DNA of 62,110 nt, counting the filler, from Basidioascus undulatus (taxonomy: Eukaryota): assembly GCA_000826855.1 (NCBI GenBank). It is 8 parts of 8 records of this genome, joined end to end, with 100 filler letters (N's around TTAATTAATTAA, not from the genome) between each part and the next. Parts side by side here need not be neighbours in the genome. Positions count along the whole stretch, not along the records: positions 25,616 to 34,486 come from JTLS01002134.1; 7 more parts are not named here. The stretch is one strand, 5' to 3'. Below are positions 25,616 through 34,586 of the stretch, piece by piece. Below the pieces are notes generated by a model, which searched no databases, was not told the DNA's origin, and saw only the letters and a list, made by a program, of their open reading frames with translations. A program made the position numbers and the translations under genes. Every line of letters starts with the position of its first letter. The stretch's first letter is position 1.

Positions 25616-28579
25616 GGCTGATGCTCGCTGGGTGTGACTGCGCTATGGCTGTGTGCCGAGTTGTGGTCAGCTGAGTCGAGCGCGCGACATTCACAATGTT
25701 TACAGCTGTGCTCGCCTCTCCCGAACAATGCGCCCCAACCTCCTCCACACCCTCTCGACCATACTCTTGGGGGTCCTCGGCAAAACCACCTCCCCCTCCT
25801 CTGCTTCCGCCCAAGGCGATGTCACGGACACGCTCTCCGTGCTCCCGATTGAGGAGCTCACGGACGTAGTTGAGAATTTGGTGGAGGAACTCGGGCTGCC
25901 CCTCGGAGCTGGCGGCCGGCGCCTGTACCACTATGCCATATTCCAGAAGCGTTTTCGGGATAAAGGTCCGGTCAGTTTGATGGTTTTTGCGCGGAACGCT
26001 TGCCGCATCTTTCCATCCGCACTCCCGTAGAGTTTGAGGATATCCTATTAAGCGCGCCCAGTCAAGTCAGCTCAACCTTGGCAAGAAGCAAGACCATTGG
26101 TGAAGGGGGGAAAACGTGTCGGCTTACGTCCTTGAAAGCGTCGATTATCATCCAAACTGGGGAAAAGGTTCTGCCTTCGTAGATCATGTAGATCGAGTAT
26201 CGAACTTGGCGAGCATCTTCTCGACGGACATGTTGAGCGAGCACCACTCGGTAGCGAGAATGTAAGAGTAAGAGACCGCCGTGGTCTCGTTCTCCGCACC
26301 GGGATGCAGGCCGAACTTGATCGCCTGCTCACGGACTTGGGATACTCCGTCAAATTGCCGAACGAGTGACGGTGCATCGCCGCCGTCTCGCCGCGAGCCA
26401 CGGCAGCGTTCATCGCGTCTCTAAGCTCTTCGCCGAGTTGAGAGTAGACGAGCTGGTAATGAAGGTCGACGACAGTCACAAGATCACCGAGTTGATCCTT
26501 TCAAGTTTGATGTCCCGTTTGAGCATGTGGGACGTCTAGAGAGTATGGGAGCACGATGAAAGCAGAAGAGAAGAGACAGCTCGCACAGAAGTTGCTTGGT
26601 CCAACTTGCGCTTCTCGGACGGCGTGCGCGTCTGTAAGGGATGAAAACGCGTGAGCAACTGCGATTCAAGAGTAATGCAAACGAACCAGAAGGCGATGGA
26701 GATCTCAGAAGAAGTGATTGCCGGCAGCTTAACCAGAATCCATTTTGCGATGCAGTGTTCGACCGCTGTACTCTTGCAGGTGCGGAGATGCTTGAGGAGG
26801 TTCCGCTTGCCAACGGGCACATGGTGCTTTTCGGAATCCTACGCAGCAATGCGCATGTGTTAGCTTGACGGACTTCGCATGGACAGTATCACATCCTCAC
26901 CCAGCTGAAAGTGTAATACTCTCTGAAGTACCGGTTGTTGGCGATGATTTTGAACTGCGCGTTCTGCGCGAGGAACTCGTACTGCCGAAGGTGATGCCGA
27001 AACATGACGATCTGCTGAGGATAGAAAGCGGATTGTTTAGCTGTGTATACCCTCATTCTCTCCTCCCTAAGTCGATCAACATCCTTCATTACGCGAGCAC
27101 TCTGCTTAGAGAACTCGCCTGCCAGAGAAGGTCCGAGTCGCGCCTCGCTGCGCGCGCGATGGCCGATGGCGTCTTGATCCCCGAGGCGTTGAAGCGGCCG
27201 TAAAGGTCGAGCGCCGAGGACCAGACTAGATGTCCCCTTTAAGCGCAGGTCCTGGCAGAGTGCTCGAGAAATCTAGAGAGAAATGTCGCCCTCTCCAGGC
27301 CCGCCGTCGTCATCCGGACTCGAACCGTAGTCGCTGCGCGCCCTCAAAGCTGTCCTCGTCCGCGTCCGCATCCGCATCGGAGTGGGTGCGGTCCAGGCTG
27401 TACTCGTAGATGAACTCGTTAAGGTATCTCCTGCAATCGTTCTCCAGGTAGTCCTGGTGTTTAAAGAGGGATATCACGTTTCGCTGGACGTCACGGGCCT
27501 CGCGGTGGGAGATGTGCTCACTGGCGCTTCCAGGGCGTCCTGTGCCTCGGCGCCTAGCGTAGAGATGCGCTCAAAGAGCATATCGAAAACGCTATAAGGG
27601 TGTACAGAGGGAGATGATATAAGAGCGGTTAGTCAATCTCGAAACATGACGAGGAGAGAGGAAGGACGGAAGTCAGGAAAGAAGACGCTCAAGTCCTTCC
27701 TCGTTCACATATCATCCAGGTCGTCTGCCAGACGGTCCTACAGATTCCGAGATGGCATCAGCTGTGCTATTTCAGTGGTAGAAATACAGTTTACGCGACT
27801 TACCAGCTCTGCCCAAGCTGTCTTTTTCGCATTGGCAAGATCGAACTGCGGCCACGAGTGGCCGGCCAACAGCTTGTCTGAATGCCCATGCAGGTATCGC
27901 GTAAGATGCATGGACTGACTGAGCGGACATAATATAAAAGTACGTACTCATCGTCCTTGCCAAGAACTCCTCGGTCGACTCCCCGCGCTTGCGGACGGGT
28001 GCGGTACGCAGCCCATCCTCCTTCTCCTTCTTGAGCCCGGCCTGCTCCACCTCGGCGAAGAAGACCGTGGTCGAGTACCACTGCACTATAAGTCCGAAGG
28101 CCACCGGCAAAACGTTCAGAGATTTCTGTTCGAGGTGCGCATGAACAAACGGAAGTCAGCGTACCAACCGGAACCAGGACCAAGTGAAGGCAAGAGGGGA
28201 TCATGAGGACGTACGGCGAGCGGTTCTCGTCAGATGGAGGGTCGTGGCGGATGACATGCAGACGATCATTGCCGGGGCCGGGACCGAACTCGGCGATGAC
28301 CCTGGAAATAAAGAAAGTCGGCTGCCTTCCGCAGCGCAGAGGAAGCGAGAAGGCCGGTCATCATCGCGCGCACCATTTTTCGAACAGGTCTTTGTTCTGC
28401 AACTGAGCTCTACCGACCGCCTCAACAATGTGGATAGCACCGTTGCTTTCATACGGGTTCTTCACCCAGTCCGCAGCTCTTTGCAGTGCGGAAAAGGACA
28501 GACGCTCGGAGGCGAATGAGCGGAACCATTCAGCGGAGCAAGGTGGGCAGGGGCAAACGCACTTCTTTTTCGGGGGCAT
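25616..28579 (-). pseudogene. Decayed multi-exon orphan gene starting MPPKKK
   Basis: Chain of protein-like exons bounded by GT..AG introns (e.g. VIAEFGPGPGNDRLHVIRHD, WYSTTVFFAEVEQAG, KLLAGHSWPQFDLANAKKTAWAEL, DYLENDCRRYLNEFIYEY, FRHHLRQYEFLAQNAQFK). In-frame stops at about 27705, 27273 and 26501, plus frameshifts. Confidence 0.6.
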
Positions 28580-29341
28580 CTTGACCTTTCATACTCATAA
28601 AGGATAAAGCAGGGTTCCATACTATGTTTCGCGCTAAAGCGAGTTGAAAGCAAAGTGCAAGGGTGATGTACCCAAAAAGGCTGAACGTCGCTCAGGTTGT
28701 ATGCATGCAAGGATTATGTGGCTCCATGGACTGCTCCGCGAGTTACCGTCTTTACAGCGGACGTCGCATTGCGAATTCCTCAGATGCCTCTTAAAAGATC
28801 ATTCTAGACAGGTACATTTGTTTTTGACCGTGGGACTGAGCCAGTGAGCCAGCGGTCACTGCTGCCTTGTGCGGAAGCTGCCTGGGCTGTTGCACGTACA
28901 CTCCTTCTCAGCTCAGTTTCGTTCTTCGACCAGGAACGAAGGTATACGATTGAGTCCCAAGGTTTTCGGAGATATCTCACCTAAAAGGACTAGACAAGCC
29001 CAAGTAAAGAGAGTGGGATGTACTACCAATCCATCTGCCTGGAACTAAGCGTGAGTGTGAGTGTGAGTCTGCGGAAGTGGGATCCTGGGGAGTGAGCCAA
29101 AGTTAAAGTGGAGAGGATGAAACTCATCGGAGTGTCCGACAAAGAGAATGATATTCTGAGCCCGGTGACTCCTCACAGAGCACAGCGGAACCGGCCGTTG
29201 AAAGGGCAAAAGGTCAGCACTGCAGCAGTCAGCGCTTAGCCTGCTTCCTTAGGAACAACCTCTAGTTCCCCAAGGTTGCCCCTCAATGGGTCTCACCAGA
29301 CCTTGAACAACCCTGGGTCGCAAGATGTTCCACTGTTGCAT

Positions 29342-29423
29342 GTCAGTGTAGTATAACGGTGAGTACATGTCGTTGTGGTTCACTAAGCCCGACAAGATGG
29401 CGGTTCGATTCCGCCCACCGACA
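29342..29423 (+). tRNA. tRNA-His(GTG) with a 10-nt intron after position 37
   Basis: Cloverleaf: acceptor GTCAGTG/CACCGAC (A4:C69 mismatch), D stem GTAT/GTAC, anticodon stem TGTCG/CGACA, loop TT-GTG-G[ttcactaagc]C, T arm GGCGG-TTCGATT-CCGCC, discriminator A, T5 terminator at 29430-29434. Confidence 0.88.
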
Positions 29424-30567
29424 TAAGTGTTTTTGTGTTATTGTCGGACCTCAAGAAGCGGTCTCTTTGGGCAAGCAACGCAGGCAGTCGGCTGTGTCAT
29501 CATGTCCGGCTCAGTCTGCACAGAGTACGTGGGCATTGAAGACTGGCAACGTCGAAGACGTCGTGCAGCATCGCTCTGAGATGAACAGAAGACAAAACGC
29601 ACAGTCCCAAAGGAACTCCTACAAGGTTCGGGAAGTCTGTAGTCAGGCAACATGTCCATACAGAGCGCAGTACTGGACAAGTTTTGATGGCTTAACATAG
29701 CGTCTCGCGTGTGCCCTTGCCGCATCCCTCAAACTCTGACTGTCTGGCCATAGACTAATTCTTTGAGTACTATGGGTTTGGAATCGTCTACGAACTTAAA
29801 AATGTTCGCTCTGACACTCTCAGACAACCGGTTTCTTGCCTCCAACACAAATTGCGGTGCCATTATACCATGCCATCCATTCCCTGTGTTGCCTTTCCGC
29901 CTGATCCAAGATGCTTCTCTTGGAATTGATGAATTCTTGGACTTCTGGGAAAGATCTTGAGCGCATGAATTCCCCCCCCCCCCAGTCCAGCTTTCGTGCA
30001 ATGTGCTGCGGCACACAGCGTTTCGCGAATTGCCCATTACATCAAGCCGGCTCTGCAACATAAGCATGATGTGAGCAGCTCAGGAAGCAGCAATTGACAC
30101 CCCAATTTCGTGCATGCTTATGAGGTGTACATTCGGGTTCTATCAATTCGTGTGCTGGCGAAGTCGGAATGTATTAAGCCGTTAGCCATTAGTGAATACA
30201 CACCATCTCAGTTGCAATGATCAGCAGTCACTCTGAATAAGCATTAACTCCCATATGCTCTCCAAATGTAACACTCCTGAACCTCTAGCGCCTGAATTAC
30301 CTGGGGCGGATTACTGGAATGTCAGCTTTGAGCTCTGCTGCCTGCCCGCATGACCCAGCGCAATTTTGCCTCTCGCCTCGTGTGCCACGTGCTTGCTGCA
30401 TTTCCGTGCCATGATCTGTTCCTGCAGATATCTCGAAGAAACAGACAGAATCAAGAAGGCCTTCCACAGGAGAGAACATAACTGAGTGATGGGTATGGTG
30501 CATCCCAACCCGTCTCTCCCTCCAACTCTCGGCGGCTGATGCAGACTGGGGGTTGGGTTGGATGCAG

Positions 30568-30942
30568 ACTACACGATCAAGGAGCTCGCCCTGTACGACT
30601 TGCCTGCGCTCGTGGACTACGTCCGGAAGACGACGGGATACGACAAGGTGCGCTCCTGTTCCCTCTCCCCATTATCCCTTTCCCCGGCTCTCCCCTCACC
30701 TCGTCTCCTTCCCCTCGCAGATCGGCTTCATCGGCCACTCGCAAGGCAACGGCCTAGCCTTCATCTCGCTCTCGCTGGGCATGCGCCCCGAGCTCGGCGA
30801 GAAGCTCTCTGTCTTCGTCGCGCTGGCGCCCGCCGTCTTTGCCGGCCCGCTCACGACCGGCTTCCCCTTCACCACGCTCGGGCGGATGGAGTGGAAGACG
30901 TGGAGGAGGGTGTTTGGCGTACTCGACTTTATTCCGATTATG
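30568..30942 (+). pseudogene. Isolated two-exon fragment of an AB-hydrolase acid lipase/sterol esterase (Tgl1/Yeh-like)
   Basis: DYTIKELALYDLPALVDYV...IGFIGHSQGNG...VFVALAPAVFAG with the GHSQG nucleophile elbow. Intron 30648-30720. Intact splice sites on both sides but no further lipase exons up- or downstream. Confidence 0.85.
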
Positions 30943-31246
30943 GTGCGTTGCGGAGGGGAGGGAGGGGGAGGAAATAGACGCGCCCGGCTGGGGTGGTTTC
31001 TGTGGAGGAATTACTGCGAATTTCTGCTCGTGCTCGTGTTGCGCGCGTTGGAGTTTGCGGTTCCCTGCCCACAATCCGCGGCGCTTCCATCGTCTCTCCT
31101 CCTCCAGCATTCAGATGCCTCGGTTCAAGTTTCGGTCGATGCGCTGCTCGCCGACGAGAGCTCCTAGAGCATTGGCAATCTCGAAGAAGGGCATTTTCGG
31201 GCGTTGAATCTTCGGTACTCGGCGTCGCGGTGGGTTCTTGACAGAT

Positions 31247-32113
31247 CTGCGGTGGATAAACACAAGACTGACAGCTCCGGAGAGCCACCCAGCCCTGAGA
31301 AAGCGCAAGAAGAGACAGTAGATATTTCTTGCTGCTTGATGCTTGATGCTTGATGCTTGATGCAGAATTGTGGCTGGGACTGGACCTAATTGGAATAGCG
31401 AGCGGACTGCGGGGTGGGTGAGTTGCACAAACATGCGTGACAGCTCCGTAGAGCGACGGCAACCCGGAGGAAGCACGCGATTCGGAGAGAAGGCGTTGCT
31501 TGGTCTTGAACCTGAGTCTTGAGTTCCGAGTCCTCAGTCTTCAGCGAAGGGGCTGTGAAGTGATCTACGGAGAGTAAAGGTTTCTGTGTTGTTCAGGCTG
31601 TGCGGCAAGCGGAAACCATGAGGAAGCGCGAGCTGGAGCTACTACGTACTTGGTCTTGAGTCTTCATGCTGATTCTTTCGTGCGTGTGATGCCTAAAGGT
31701 AGGCTATGGGGCTCTGCACATGGGCATGGTCAGTCCACAGACACGCTGTTCGAAAGCTCTGTGGAGCAGCATCGGCAACCCGGAGGAAACGCGAGCTGGA
31801 TATGCCCTTCGTACTTGACTCTGATCCTTCATTCCTGGGTAGGGTGACGCCGAGATCGGTAGGCAATCGGGAGGTCTGAACGGGGGTTGGGTGAGTGGCC
31901 AAACACGCTGTCGGACGACGACAGCTTCGTAGAGCAACGGCAAACCTGAGGGACCGCTAGAAAGAGAAGAGGTCGCTGTTGAGAATTGATGGAGATTGAT
32001 TATTGCGTGTGACGGAGACGAGCGAACTATGGGGGTGGGTGAGTGGGACAGAACGCGAGACGACAGCTCCGTAGAGCAGCGACAACCCGGAGGAAGCGCG
32101 AAGAAGTCAGTGC
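31247..32113 (-). repeat. Degenerate tandem array of six ~155-bp exon+intron-like units with a conserved intronic core
   Basis: Minus-strand core (C)GCGCTTCCTCCGGGTTGCCG..GCTCTACGGAGCTGTC recurs six times, each followed by a C-rich tract and YAG. Four units have a CTCAC/CTGAC branch site. YAG positions 32027, 31876, 31714, 31565, 31407, 31247 (spacing 151, 162, 149, 158, 160). Confidence 0.8.
31333..31363. repeat. Heptamer microsatellite (TGCTTGA)4
   Basis: Four perfect copies plus TGC. Confidence 0.9.
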
Positions 32114-33606
32114 TCCGCAGAAGTCAGTGCTCCCCAGAGCGCGAAGGTCCTGAGCCTTGCGTCGGCGGAAGGGAAAGGTACGGGCGCTTCAGGGGGAAGA
32201 CAAAGAGAGAGGGAGGGGCAGGGCGAAGGGTGAGTGGCGAGTAGCGAGGCGCGGCGGAAGAGGAGGTGGGCTGGAATGTTGATACTGTGTCCGTCTGACT
32301 GACTTGATTGACTGACCCCAAGCTTATCCCTAGGTAGTTGGTAGTTTGGTTTTTTGTGAGGATTGAGACGGAACTGAAGGAAAACTATGGTGGAAAGGTC
32401 GACGGTTAACGGTAACGCAGTTGGGATGGTAGCAGAGGAACATGTGAGAGAAGAGCGCTCGGGACGCCTGCTCTCTTCCTCTTTCACCCCGGACCCGCTT
32501 CTTCGGCAATCTCAGATATAATGAACCAGGCTGTAGCTACACCGTGCGCAACTGCTTTAGGGAAAAGAGAAAGCGCCGCGTTCTTTCCGTCCCACGTCCC
32601 TTTACAGTCCTCGGCCATGCAAACGCAACCTTCTCGCACTTGTTTAGAGTCTTGTTTTATGTATATTGTAGATTAATGTATTTTATTGTGAAAGTACATC
32701 ACACAAATATTTAGTGGCTCTCCCGTCGCGCGGGCGCAGTTCACCAGGGAGACGAAGTCGAGCGCGGGCGGGGGGAGTCGATCGAACCGTCGGTCGAGGG
32801 CACAAGGGCGATAGCAAGATCCGCATTGCGAGTGCCGTACGTCCTGAAGGATCGAACGTCAAGCCGACGGCTCTGAATACGGTGCCGACGGCAGAGGTGC
32901 AATTCGCGTCGAGCGGCGGGGCGTGCTGGGGCGAGGCGAAGTGTGGAAGGCTGCATTGTTGGTGCATCCAGCCTCACACAGCATTGCCGGTTCCTTAGAG
33001 TTGTACGACCAGCGCGATGGGAGCGGGTAAGGTCGAGTGAAGCGCAGGCAGGGAACGCGGTGATGGTGCGCGATCCAGCGTGCGGAACTGCTCAGCTTTA
33101 GTGACAGACTGTTTGTCCTCTGCAATCATATACAGACGGACTGCGTGTGCGGCCATGCGTCCCTTGGTATATGGCGTCAAGAGCAATCGATACGAGAGTG
33201 AAGAGGGCCAAGCGGATGGCGGCGAAGAGGTTGGCTGGACGTCCCCGCAGCATGTGGAGCGATCGAAGCGGCCTATCGAATTGAATCGATGAGCAGATGA
33301 GTTCGAGCAGTGGGGATGAACCCTAAGAATGTAGTGTGAAGTGTAAGGAGAGCAAGAAGCCTCGAAGAGGGTTGGCGCCCAGAGGTCACGATCGAGGTTC
33401 GAGCGGGAGGTGAGGGGGTGTAAGTGGGCCGATTCCCCGACTAGCGGGGAGGCCATGCCCTATTGCGCTCCCTGTGTCCTGCCACCGCCTTCAGAGGCTC
33501 ACCCACTGTGAAGCGATGGTATAATGCACGGCACAGCGGCGCATGAGATCGTCCCCCGTCCCCTTCTCGCCCACCTACCCCCACCTCTCCTCCGGCTCCG
33601 AATATC

Positions 33607-34178
33607 TCAACCCAAGAAGCTGAACACGCAGAAGTGTAGGACGAGCGATCCGAACGCGTAATCTGCGAATGCTCTGCGGGGAACAGCAGTATACGGGGGT
33701 CAGGGAGAAGGGACGAGGAGGAAGATGTGGGGAGACTGATGTGAGGTGAGGGGGAAGAGCAAGAGGGGAGACTCACCGTTCAGGGGTGACGGCCGGGAAC
33801 TCTCCCTTGTTCTCCGGGTTGACCTGGCTGCGCAGCCCGGCAGTGAGGACGAACTGCCCGATGTTGCTTGCAAACCTGTTTCTCCCCATCCATCCAACCC
33901 ATCACCTCTCTCACTTCAGCAGCCCTCCTGTCAGCCCTTCCCCGTTCTCTCTCAACGCACCCGGCAAGGAAAGCGTTAAAGGGATAGTTAGACACCAGCA
34001 CGCAGTACGCGAACTGGAGGACCCCGCCGAGGCAGAGGAAGGCGAGGAAGGCGTCGATGAGCTTGAGCCGTGCGGGGGTGCGCGACTGGTAGGACTGCAC
34101 GAGGGTGCGGAGGGCGGAGGAGGCGGTGGAGACGGTCGCAGCCGCGGTGGAGGAGGAGGGGGATTTGGAGGAGGCCAT
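33607..34178 (-). CDS. OST2: Oligosaccharyltransferase epsilon subunit Ost2/DAD1, 3 exons
   Basis: TPARLKLIDAFLAFLCLGGVLQFAYCVLVSNYPFNAFLAG / FASNIGQFVLTAGLRSQVNPEN...VTPER / AFADYAFGSLVLHFCVFSFLG*. Confidence 0.95.
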
Positions 34179-34385
34179 TGTGGGGAGGGGCAGATGGGAT
34201 GAGGGGAAGACGCAAGCTGGGCTGCGGGCGACAGCGAAGTCGAGTGCAGCGACGGCGGCATCGGCCCGCCGGCACAGCGCGTCATTCGCGCCGTCCTCGA
34301 GTTGCCTTCCTTCCTTCAGACCATCTTGCTCTTCACCCCCATTCACATCTCAAAATCATACTGAATCCCAATCACATCTCCGCCT

Positions 34386-34444
34386 ATGGTAGAAGCCACC
34401 TCAGCCGGTCCCCTCTCCGGCCTGATCATCCTCTCTTCATCCGG
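34386..34444 (+). CDS. Probable first exon of a gene divergent from OST2, truncated by spacer; possibly a longin-fold adaptor mu subunit
   Basis: MVEATSAGPLSGLIILSSSG then donor GTGCGT at 34445. GLIILxxxG resembles AP-3 mu N-termini (weak). Confidence 0.35.
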
Positions 34445-34486
34445 GTGCGTGCATAGGAGCGCTGACTGACGTTAGCGCTTTGCTGG

Positions 34487-34586
34487 NNNNNNNNNNNNNN
34501 NNNNNNNNNNNNNNNNNNNNNNNNNNNNNNTTAATTAATTAANNNNNNNNNNNNNNNNNNNNNNNNNNNNNNNNNNNNNNNNNNNN
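34487..34586. other. Artificial contig spacer
   Basis: 44 N + TTAATTAATTAA + 44 N. Confidence 0.98.

Follow-up and report, generated by a model that had tools for sequence, protein, structure and literature searches.

Why should a 40-nt box remain recognisable in copy after copy of a noncoding tandem repeat when the sequence between the copies has drifted almost to randomness? The question is raised by a short array in Basidioascus undulatus, a basidiomycete without close sequenced relatives, from a poorly sampled lineage. The array lies in a window of 62,110 nt (the whole stretch of DNA that was analysed) that otherwise contains ordinary housekeeping genes. An earlier note had read it as six homologous intron-like units on the minus strand whose cores outlast their exons, and had proposed selection on an intronic element: a family of small intronic RNAs, a splicing-control element or an introner-like element. 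Two issues are thus combined, namely whether the core is constrained and whether it is intronic, and they are considered separately below.

Results

Organization of the array

The array (31154–32238) is a degenerate tandem repeat of six units plus one doubtful seventh, with a unit of about 155 bp: units are homologous, arranged head to tail and similar in length (Table 1). While the six recurring units described previously are evident, their supposed period of 149–162 bp is not: distances from core to core are 170, 153, 159, 169 and 141 bp, that is, 141–170 bp. A repeat finder placed the cores in a single family and detected further common blocks (families D1–D8 in all), the order of which is preserved in several units.

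Profiles were built from five cores and the window was searched for the sixth (leave-one-out). Four of the six cores – those of units 2, 4, 5 and 6 – were individually significant (E 5.7e-8 to 1.9e-5), and these four units are therefore solid on the evidence of the core by itself; units 1 and 3 are identified by their spacing and by the other common blocks rather than by the core. Whether unit 0 is a seventh copy is doubtful: its core scored E 3.6 with the core profile and E 0.39–3.1 across all six leave-one-out runs, its identity to the other cores is 0.52–0.64 (null 0.51), and it is overlapped on the minus strand by a 27-codon ORF with its ATG at 31194. Tandem Repeats Finder reported only two features in the array, a microsatellite within unit 1 (the 7-mer CTTGATG ×5, 31328–31363) and a 17-mer ×2.2 within unit 6 (32102–32138); that the array of ~155-bp units itself went unreported fits units that are less than 70% alike.

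Table 1. Features of the array and of its surroundings (positions in the window).
Feature	Position	Strand	Core	Remarks
Sterol-esterase/lipase fragment, two exons	30567–30942	+		exons 30567–30650 and 30718–30942; intron ~67 nt
Whole degenerate array	31154–32238	none		six clear units, doubtful seventh, and at one end an additional copy of the G-rich/GTGAGT block
Unit 0, doubtful seventh copy	31154–31269	none		copy of repeat family D1 (67%); matched by unit profile
Unit 1	31270–31439		31270–31312	leave-one-out E 0.62
Unit 2	31440–31592		31439–31481	leave-one-out E 2.4e-7
Unit 3	31593–31751		31592–31635	most diverged core of the six; leave-one-out E 0.017
Unit 4	31752–31920		31752–31797	leave-one-out E 3.8e-6
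Unit 5	31921–32061		31920–31962	leave-one-out E 1.9e-5
Unit 6	32062–32209		32062–32104	leave-one-out E 5.7e-8
Second block, copy 1	31409–31426	none		family D3
Second block, copy 2	31882–31899	none		family D3
Second block, copy 3	32030–32047	none		family D3
Second block, copy 4	32221–32238	none		family D3; just past the last core
Intron-like stretch directly after the array, candidate only	32230–32333	+		GTGAGT, three CTGAC, TAG; 104 nt
DAD1/OST2, three exons	33605–34178	−		on the minus strand, its stop precedes the array by ~1.5 kb

Genomic surroundings

The array is located within some 2.7 kb of noncoding DNA, bounded on one side by a stranded two-exon lipase fragment and on the other by the 3′ end of DAD1/OST2. 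The fragment corresponds approximately to residues 390–490 of a 658-residue relative, and the conserved N- and C-terminal parts of the lipase are found nowhere in the 62 kb. The best named matches of the lipase exon are to Tremellomycetes and other basidiomycete yeasts (80–85% identity); for an eIF2-alpha exon the best matches are likewise basidiomycete, at no more than 73%. In all 30 related metagenome loci that were found with the lipase exon (~161 kb) the lipase is intact and full length. The core is absent from every one of these loci, none of which contains DAD1, eIF2-alpha or GDI: the loci are not syntenic, and are thus uninformative as to conservation of the array. Between the array and DAD1 there is an AT-rich zone (about 32650–32710), where the minus strand contains AATAAA and the plus strand TATGTATAT.

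Conservation of core and spacer

The multiple alignment of units 1–6 gave a pairwise identity of 0.68 (418/616) in the core and of 0.33 (644/1971) elsewhere. When the 15 pairs of units were aligned globally, two by two, cores averaged 0.707 (shuffled sequences 0.506, sd 0.013) and spacers 0.54 (shuffled sequences 0.495, sd 0.007). The core therefore exceeds the remainder of the unit in conservation, as had been claimed, and divergence of cores and spacers – equality of which had been named as the outcome that would speak against the claim – is unequal under formal alignment. Units 2 and 6 have the most similar cores of all (0.84), yet their spacers are at the random level (0.50): recent duplication of whole units does not explain the pattern.

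The 40-nt box is bipartite and comprises the half-boxes ACAGCTCCGTAGAGC and CGGCAACCCGGAGGAAGCGCG, which are separated by a linker that differs by up to four bases. Changes in the length of the box sit in this linker – in unit 4, for example, a 3-nt insertion separates the two half-boxes – as a pair of recognition blocks would lead one to expect. All strong units share the same limits of the conserved segment, and the core has accumulated fewer substitutions as well as fewer indels. Since uniform neutral decay fails to account for the contrast between core and spacer, it is reasonable to infer that the core is constrained: this part of the earlier proposal, selection on the element, is supported, whereas an intronic nature of the element is not. 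Selection on the box is, however, suggested by heterogeneity within a six-copy array of one genome and not by comparison between species, and a similar picture could arise from uneven mutability or from gene conversion over short tracts.

A second conserved block

Conservation is not confined to the box. A shorter, G-rich block containing GTGAGT (family D3; GGGGTGGGTGAGT on the plus strand, ACTCACCCACCCC on the minus strand) is present in four copies that are 83–100% identical. The plus strand of the window contains six GGTGAGT words, of which four are in or at the array, with GTGAGT at 31418, 31891, 32039 and 32230; one of the two words outside it is a genuine eIF2-alpha donor. Viewed from the other strand the same words look different: the minus-strand CTCAC/CTGAC motifs (n=4) are the reverse complements of plus-strand GTGAGT/GTCAGT. 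The intron-like features of the array are ambiguous as to strand, and convince only at the 3′ side.

The array as a possible series of introns

Seven introns of neighboring genes, deduced from homology and from reading frames, served as reference: eIF2-alpha provided four, DAD1 two and the lipase fragment one. Their donors are GTGCGT (three), GTGAGT (two), GTGCGC and GTTCGT, and their branch words are CTGAC or CTAAC, with the exception of the lipase intron, in which CTCAC is the only branch-like word. Read on the minus strand, the cores run from 32100 to 32062, 31959 to 31920, 31794 to 31750, 31631 to 31592, 31483 to 31441 and 31305 to 31270. Each of the six is followed, as originally described, by a C-rich tract and a YAG (the AGs end at 32027, 31876, 31714, 31565, 31407 and 31247). 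The branch-like motif reported for four units is also present: ACTCAC follows three cores, ACTGAC follows one, and two cores have none. These 3′ halves, with ACTCAC, C-tract and YAG at 11–15 nt, resemble the ends of the lipase intron and of eIF2-alpha intron 4 (in the latter, ACTAAC, a C-tract and CACAG), and a 28-nt C-rich motif containing CTCAC is common to two real introns.

The 5′ side is different. Although the donor strings listed previously do occur at the places given for them, only two of the six units have a GT (GTACGT in unit 3, GTACGA in unit 4); three others have weak GC words and for one no donor had been proposed. Taken together, the 5′ sides of the array on this strand do not fit the GT (rarely GC) donors expected of U2-type introns in this organism, a consensus CTRAY branch (CTGAC) is present in one unit of six, and a strict scan for GT donor, CTRAY branch and YAG found no minus-strand candidate in 30950–32750. 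Unit 4 is the only unit with a near-complete set of minus-strand signals (GTACGA at 31814, ACTGAC at 31733 and a CAG ending at 31714). The splice-like signals of the 5′ side do not exceed chance, and the claim that the units are minus-strand introns was not borne out.

On the plus strand, the stretch that begins in the last copy of the second block is intron-like and complete (Table 1), but the strict pattern is unspecific: it predicts 89 candidate donors in the window as compared to a mean of 67 in 20 shuffled sequences. At a rate so near to chance the stretch is only a candidate, and the other GTGAGT donors of the array have no CTRAY branch and YAG of their own in the strict scan. On either strand the box has been preserved better than the splice signals; splicing itself is therefore not what preserves the box, which has probably not been kept as the core of six spliceosomal introns.

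RNA, structure and coding potential

Searches with Rfam at the gathering score across the whole window returned only two tRNAs, neither of them in the array, and relaxation to E values of up to 10 in 30500–33000 added one noise match (E 0.96). Coverage of basidiomycete snoRNAs in Rfam may be thin. No box C/D candidate was found on either strand of 30900–33650 (a C box with no more than one mismatch, followed 50–140 nt downstream by CTGA, and a terminal stem of 4 bp or more), and no H/ACA motifs were seen by eye, in line with the earlier note. Intronic snoRNAs of Neurospora have UHG-like hosts, in which most lie 41–60 nt from the 5′ splice site (PMC2780460). The candidate introns – 85–101 nt long, with a conserved part of 40 nt – are too short for this layout, and together with the empty Rfam and box C/D searches this argues against the proposed small intronic RNAs.

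Signs of a conserved fold are equally absent. Consensus folding of the six cores with their flanks gave −1.5 kcal/mol on the plus strand and −3.3 kcal/mol on the minus strand, and compensatory changes were found at 0/4 and 0/8 of the predicted pairs, respectively, a comparison for which six sequences have little power. The helix between CTCCG and CGGAG noted previously can indeed pair (24 of 30 cells), but not beyond chance: 0 of 5 pairs showed a double change and an equal paired fraction was obtained in 500 of 500 shuffles. The six cores hence gave no sign of a structured element. Fold z-scores of units are −1.71, −1.32, +1.55, +1.47, +0.27 and −0.07 on the minus strand and −1.20, −0.34, +0.35, +2.13, −2.38 and −1.00 on the plus strand; over these 12 folds whole units show no consistent stability and do no better than shuffled sequences.

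Nor does the array appear to encode protein. The supposed exons form no continuous ORF, in agreement with the original description, and in all six frames stops are common and no reading frame carries over from one unit to the next. Frame-specific GC3 contrast reaches at most 0.21 in 30950–33770, as against 0.34–0.46 in the exons of lipase, eIF2-alpha and DAD1. A 139-aa ORF that spans three units drew 17 candidates from 5.8 billion proteins, none with E ≤ 0.1, and 87 ORFs from 29450–34480 had no match in Pfam except DAD1. A coding tandem repeat (a Kex2-processed repeat protein or a pheromone precursor) was rejected because of the stops, the frame shifts and the want of GC3 periodicity or a homologue; a frame that reads DSSVEQRQPGG in three units was rejected along with all six frames. 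The array is noncoding, with no known RNA family and no structural signal.

Copies elsewhere and possible sources

No second copy of the unit or of its core exists outside the array in the 62-kb window. Additional matches to two sub-motifs of the box with three mismatches number 1 and 3 in the rest of the window (1.2 and 2.3 expected), and with no such enrichment there is no sign of the box in other promoters here. The box matches none of the motifs tested; short transcription-factor words picked out by eye (CGG spacing, SYGGRG, MCB-like, GCN4-like) are expected by chance at such length. A degenerate core pattern had no match in metagenomes, and 12-mers of the core, searched against the literature, returned only unrelated primers among the matches listed. 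Proliferation of an introner-like element, another of the options first raised, is disfavored by the single locus in 62 kb and by the inconsistent fold stability. No inverted repeats flank the array region (the only pair found is the motif common to two introns), and a transposase domain is absent from all 101 ORFs in the window that reach 150 aa.

Neighboring genes were considered as sources of the unit and rejected. DNA similarity of the lipase fragment to its relatives ends at 30563 and 30942, and both a weak protein alignment at 31050–31193 (E 0.92) and a one-frame 'RRK' resemblance are noise. A core-like word in exon 2 of DAD1 (33810–33838; E 0.05–1.7) is at about chance level. Derivation from a tRNA was likewise discarded: the tRNA-His gene at 29341–29424 shares only GGTGAGT with the unit.

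Discussion

The repeat and its uneven conservation are plain from the alignments; what maintains the box is a matter for comparison and argument. Known systems provide several points of reference. Alpha-satellite has a 171-bp monomer with a 17-bp CENP-B box, and the RPS of Candida albicans contain 172-bp 'alt' repeats with a 29-bp COM29 core. Like these satellites with a protein-binding box, the array is noncoding; its units, arranged head to tail and close to nucleosome length, have diverged strongly, but most copies keep a short box. Unlike them, it has only six or seven copies, is located on a chromosome arm among housekeeping genes, has a box whose role is putative only, and is the sole array of its unit in the 62-kb window. 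Fungal promoter and enhancer repeats offer a second comparison: CYP51 of Penicillium digitatum has a 126-bp enhancer in five copies, and enhancer repeats of rDNA spacers have a promoter-like core. Here, too, intergenic tandem units of 100–170 bp have a short conserved core as the putative active part, but the fungal enhancer repeats arose recently, hardly differ from one another and belong to a known gene, whereas the copies of the array are old; and since the array sits between the 3′ sides of its neighbors, no regulated gene was identified.

Two further comparisons concern introns. The UHG-like snoRNA hosts of Neurospora crassa (clusters I–V) are similar in that the array could specify a noncoding multi-intron transcript with short exons and short ORFs, in which intron content outweighs exons (PMC2780460). 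The array differs from these hosts in having no box C/D, H/ACA or Rfam match, and from snoRNA clusters, each of which holds different snoRNAs, in that its conserved parts are alike between units (PMC2780460). Introner-like elements of Dothideomycetes are likewise homologous intron-sized units that have been proposed to multiply (PMC3609843). The array, by contrast, is local and in tandem, its copies are some 70% alike at best, there is no second copy in 62 kb, and the stable structure predicted for introner-like elements has no counterpart in a consistent fold stability. In Zymoseptoria tritici, tandem duplication within one gene explains under 1% of the gains of single introns (PMC4457414).

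Our preferred explanation, put forward tentatively, is an old, local, noncoding tandem duplication in which selection may have held a bipartite box, most likely as a reiterated recognition site. Tandem duplication would have produced the copies; the spacers would then have drifted almost to randomness, with small slippage events continuing, while two parts – the bipartite 40-nt box and the shorter G-rich/GTGAGT block – would have stayed recognisable. The box would be kept as a repeated site for a putative sequence-specific factor, and would act on the DNA as a cis-element reiterated at roughly nucleosome spacing; less likely, it might act on RNA made from the array. Its binding-site function is putative, and a pure DNA-site model leaves the intron-like 3′ halves of the units unexplained.

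The most serious competitor dispenses with function. The array would then be what is left of a minisatellite, decaying where genes are few and the DNA has been rearranged, its core kept by short-tract gene conversion between copies, by lower slippage or mutability of a high-complexity segment, or by chance among only six copies. It does adjoin a gene fragment, and some 4 kb here show no sign of coding; its spacers contain fresh slippage products (the 7-mer and the 17-mer); units 0, 1 and 3 are already nearly unrecognisable; and functional signals of any kind were not found in the tests run. Such decay must nonetheless account for cores that are about 71% identical between spacers at the random level, with the same boundaries in the strong units, a pattern that conversion tracts are unlikely to reproduce, and for a core depleted in substitutions and not in indels alone. 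A relic is somewhat less probable than the preferred explanation, and well worth keeping in mind. A minus-strand noncoding transcript of tandem introns and mini-exons, with the box as an intronic element for splicing control, protein binding or small RNAs, is less probable again. It would explain why a C-rich tract and YAG follow all six cores, with ACTCAC or ACTGAC 11–15 nt upstream of the YAG in four, in a layout close to that of real 3′ intron ends; why AAG|GTACGT and AAG|GTACGA occupy homologous places in units 3 and 4 (family D8); and why that strand has a TATA-like word and a CT-rich tract upstream. Against this reading, four of the six units lack a GT donor and the strict scan is empty; ACTCAC is the exact reverse complement of the consensus donor of the other strand; covariation, fold stability, Rfam and box C/D are all negative; the box is better conserved than the splice signals; and such a transcript would enter the lipase fragment in antisense orientation.

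Read on the plus strand, the array could instead be a reiterated 5′ splice site, its GGTGAGT copies being alternative or decoy donors (U1 snRNP sites) for an intron end at 32295–32333, in a transcript that would stop in the AT-rich zone near 32650–32700. This, too, is distinctly unlikely. The concentration of GGTGAGT at the array, the use of GTGAGT and GTGCGT as donors by neighboring real introns, the three CTGAC and a TAG at intron-like distances after the last copy, and TATGTATAT in the AT-rich zone downstream are all in its favor; yet the array donors have no branch and YAG of their own, the strict pattern is unspecific, a promoter or upstream exon is not evident, and the four GTGAGT copies derive from one ancestral copy and so count as a single event. 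There is a slim chance, finally, that in this deep-branching basidiomycete the six units belong to a putative long noncoding transcript of introns and mini-exons in which splice signals are decaying and the 40-nt intronic box is maintained as a platform for protein or small RNA. In Cryptococcus, RNAi reportedly acts on stalled spliceosomes, and by analogy an array of weak introns could plausibly be read by fungal RNAi acting in the same way. Were this platform to exist, it would be the most novel aspect of the locus, of a kind not described before.

As it stands, the array is one more lineage-specific degenerate tandem repeat, useful mainly as a warning: since GTGAGT becomes ACTCAC on the opposite strand, a single conserved block can pass for a branch site in one direction and for a donor in the other, and arrays of intron-like units cannot be called from sequence alone. 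If, on the other hand, the box serves as a repeated binding site or as an RNA element within introns, then the locus would be a compact natural case of selection on part of a noncoding repeat, and would provide an entry point to a factor in a barely sampled lineage of basidiomycetes.

A lipase gene fragment beside the array

The array (a degenerate noncoding tandem repeat) is flanked on one side by an isolated fragment of a sterol-esterase/lipase gene, which covers ~100 of roughly 650 residues. Both the reading frame and the internal intron of the fragment are intact, and its coding GC3 is strong. Homology ends at an acceptor-like CAG (30566) on one side and at a donor-like GTGCGT (30943) on the other. 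The remainder of the gene was not found anywhere in the 62 kb window; in 30 relatives (metagenome loci), full-length lipase genes are present elsewhere. The fragment could be a recent fragment duplication, a set of captured exons, or a piece of a chimeric transcript.

Features on either side of the array, with positions along the whole stretch
Feature	Position	Strand	Remarks
Long ORFs	26075-28155	-	coding GC3 periodicity, strong in several stretches
tRNA-His(GTG) gene	29341-29424	+	84 nt
Sterol-esterase/lipase gene fragment	30567-30942	+	two exons; GHSQG region
28-nt C-rich motif with CCCCTCACCTC	30692-30719; 33726-33753		lipase intron; DAD1 intron 2
Intron-like stretch, then short ORF	32230-32521	+	GTGAGT, three CTGAC, TAG
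44-codon ORF	32387-32521	+	3' of intron-like stretch; A at -3, G at +4
AT-rich island	32650-32710		between array and DAD1; GC about 0.3-0.45

The lipase intron shares its C-rich motif with intron 2 of DAD1, the gene on the other flank of the array. The two copies match at 71% as an inverted pair: the same motif thus lies on the sense strand of each gene. The ACTCACCCACCCC block of the array is similar in style.

Neighboring genes and possible transcript ends

The minus-strand ORFs, for which a Pfam match is absent, are probably an unnamed multi-exon gene. The tRNA-His(GTG) gene is solitary, with the lipase fragment ~1.1 kb downstream of it, and its length suggests an intron. Runs of 44 N bases – in seven pairs spaced about every 4.6 kb (25516-57614), one of them (34487-34586) within the DAD1/eIF2-alpha promoter region – look like masking, not assembly gaps.

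Because the intron-like stretch directly after the array, together with its 44-codon ORF, carries no coding GC3 signal, it is probably not a gene. Beyond it lies the AT-rich island, whose minus strand contains AATAAA and whose plus strand contains TATGTATAT; the island looks like a 3'-end formation zone common to convergent transcripts.
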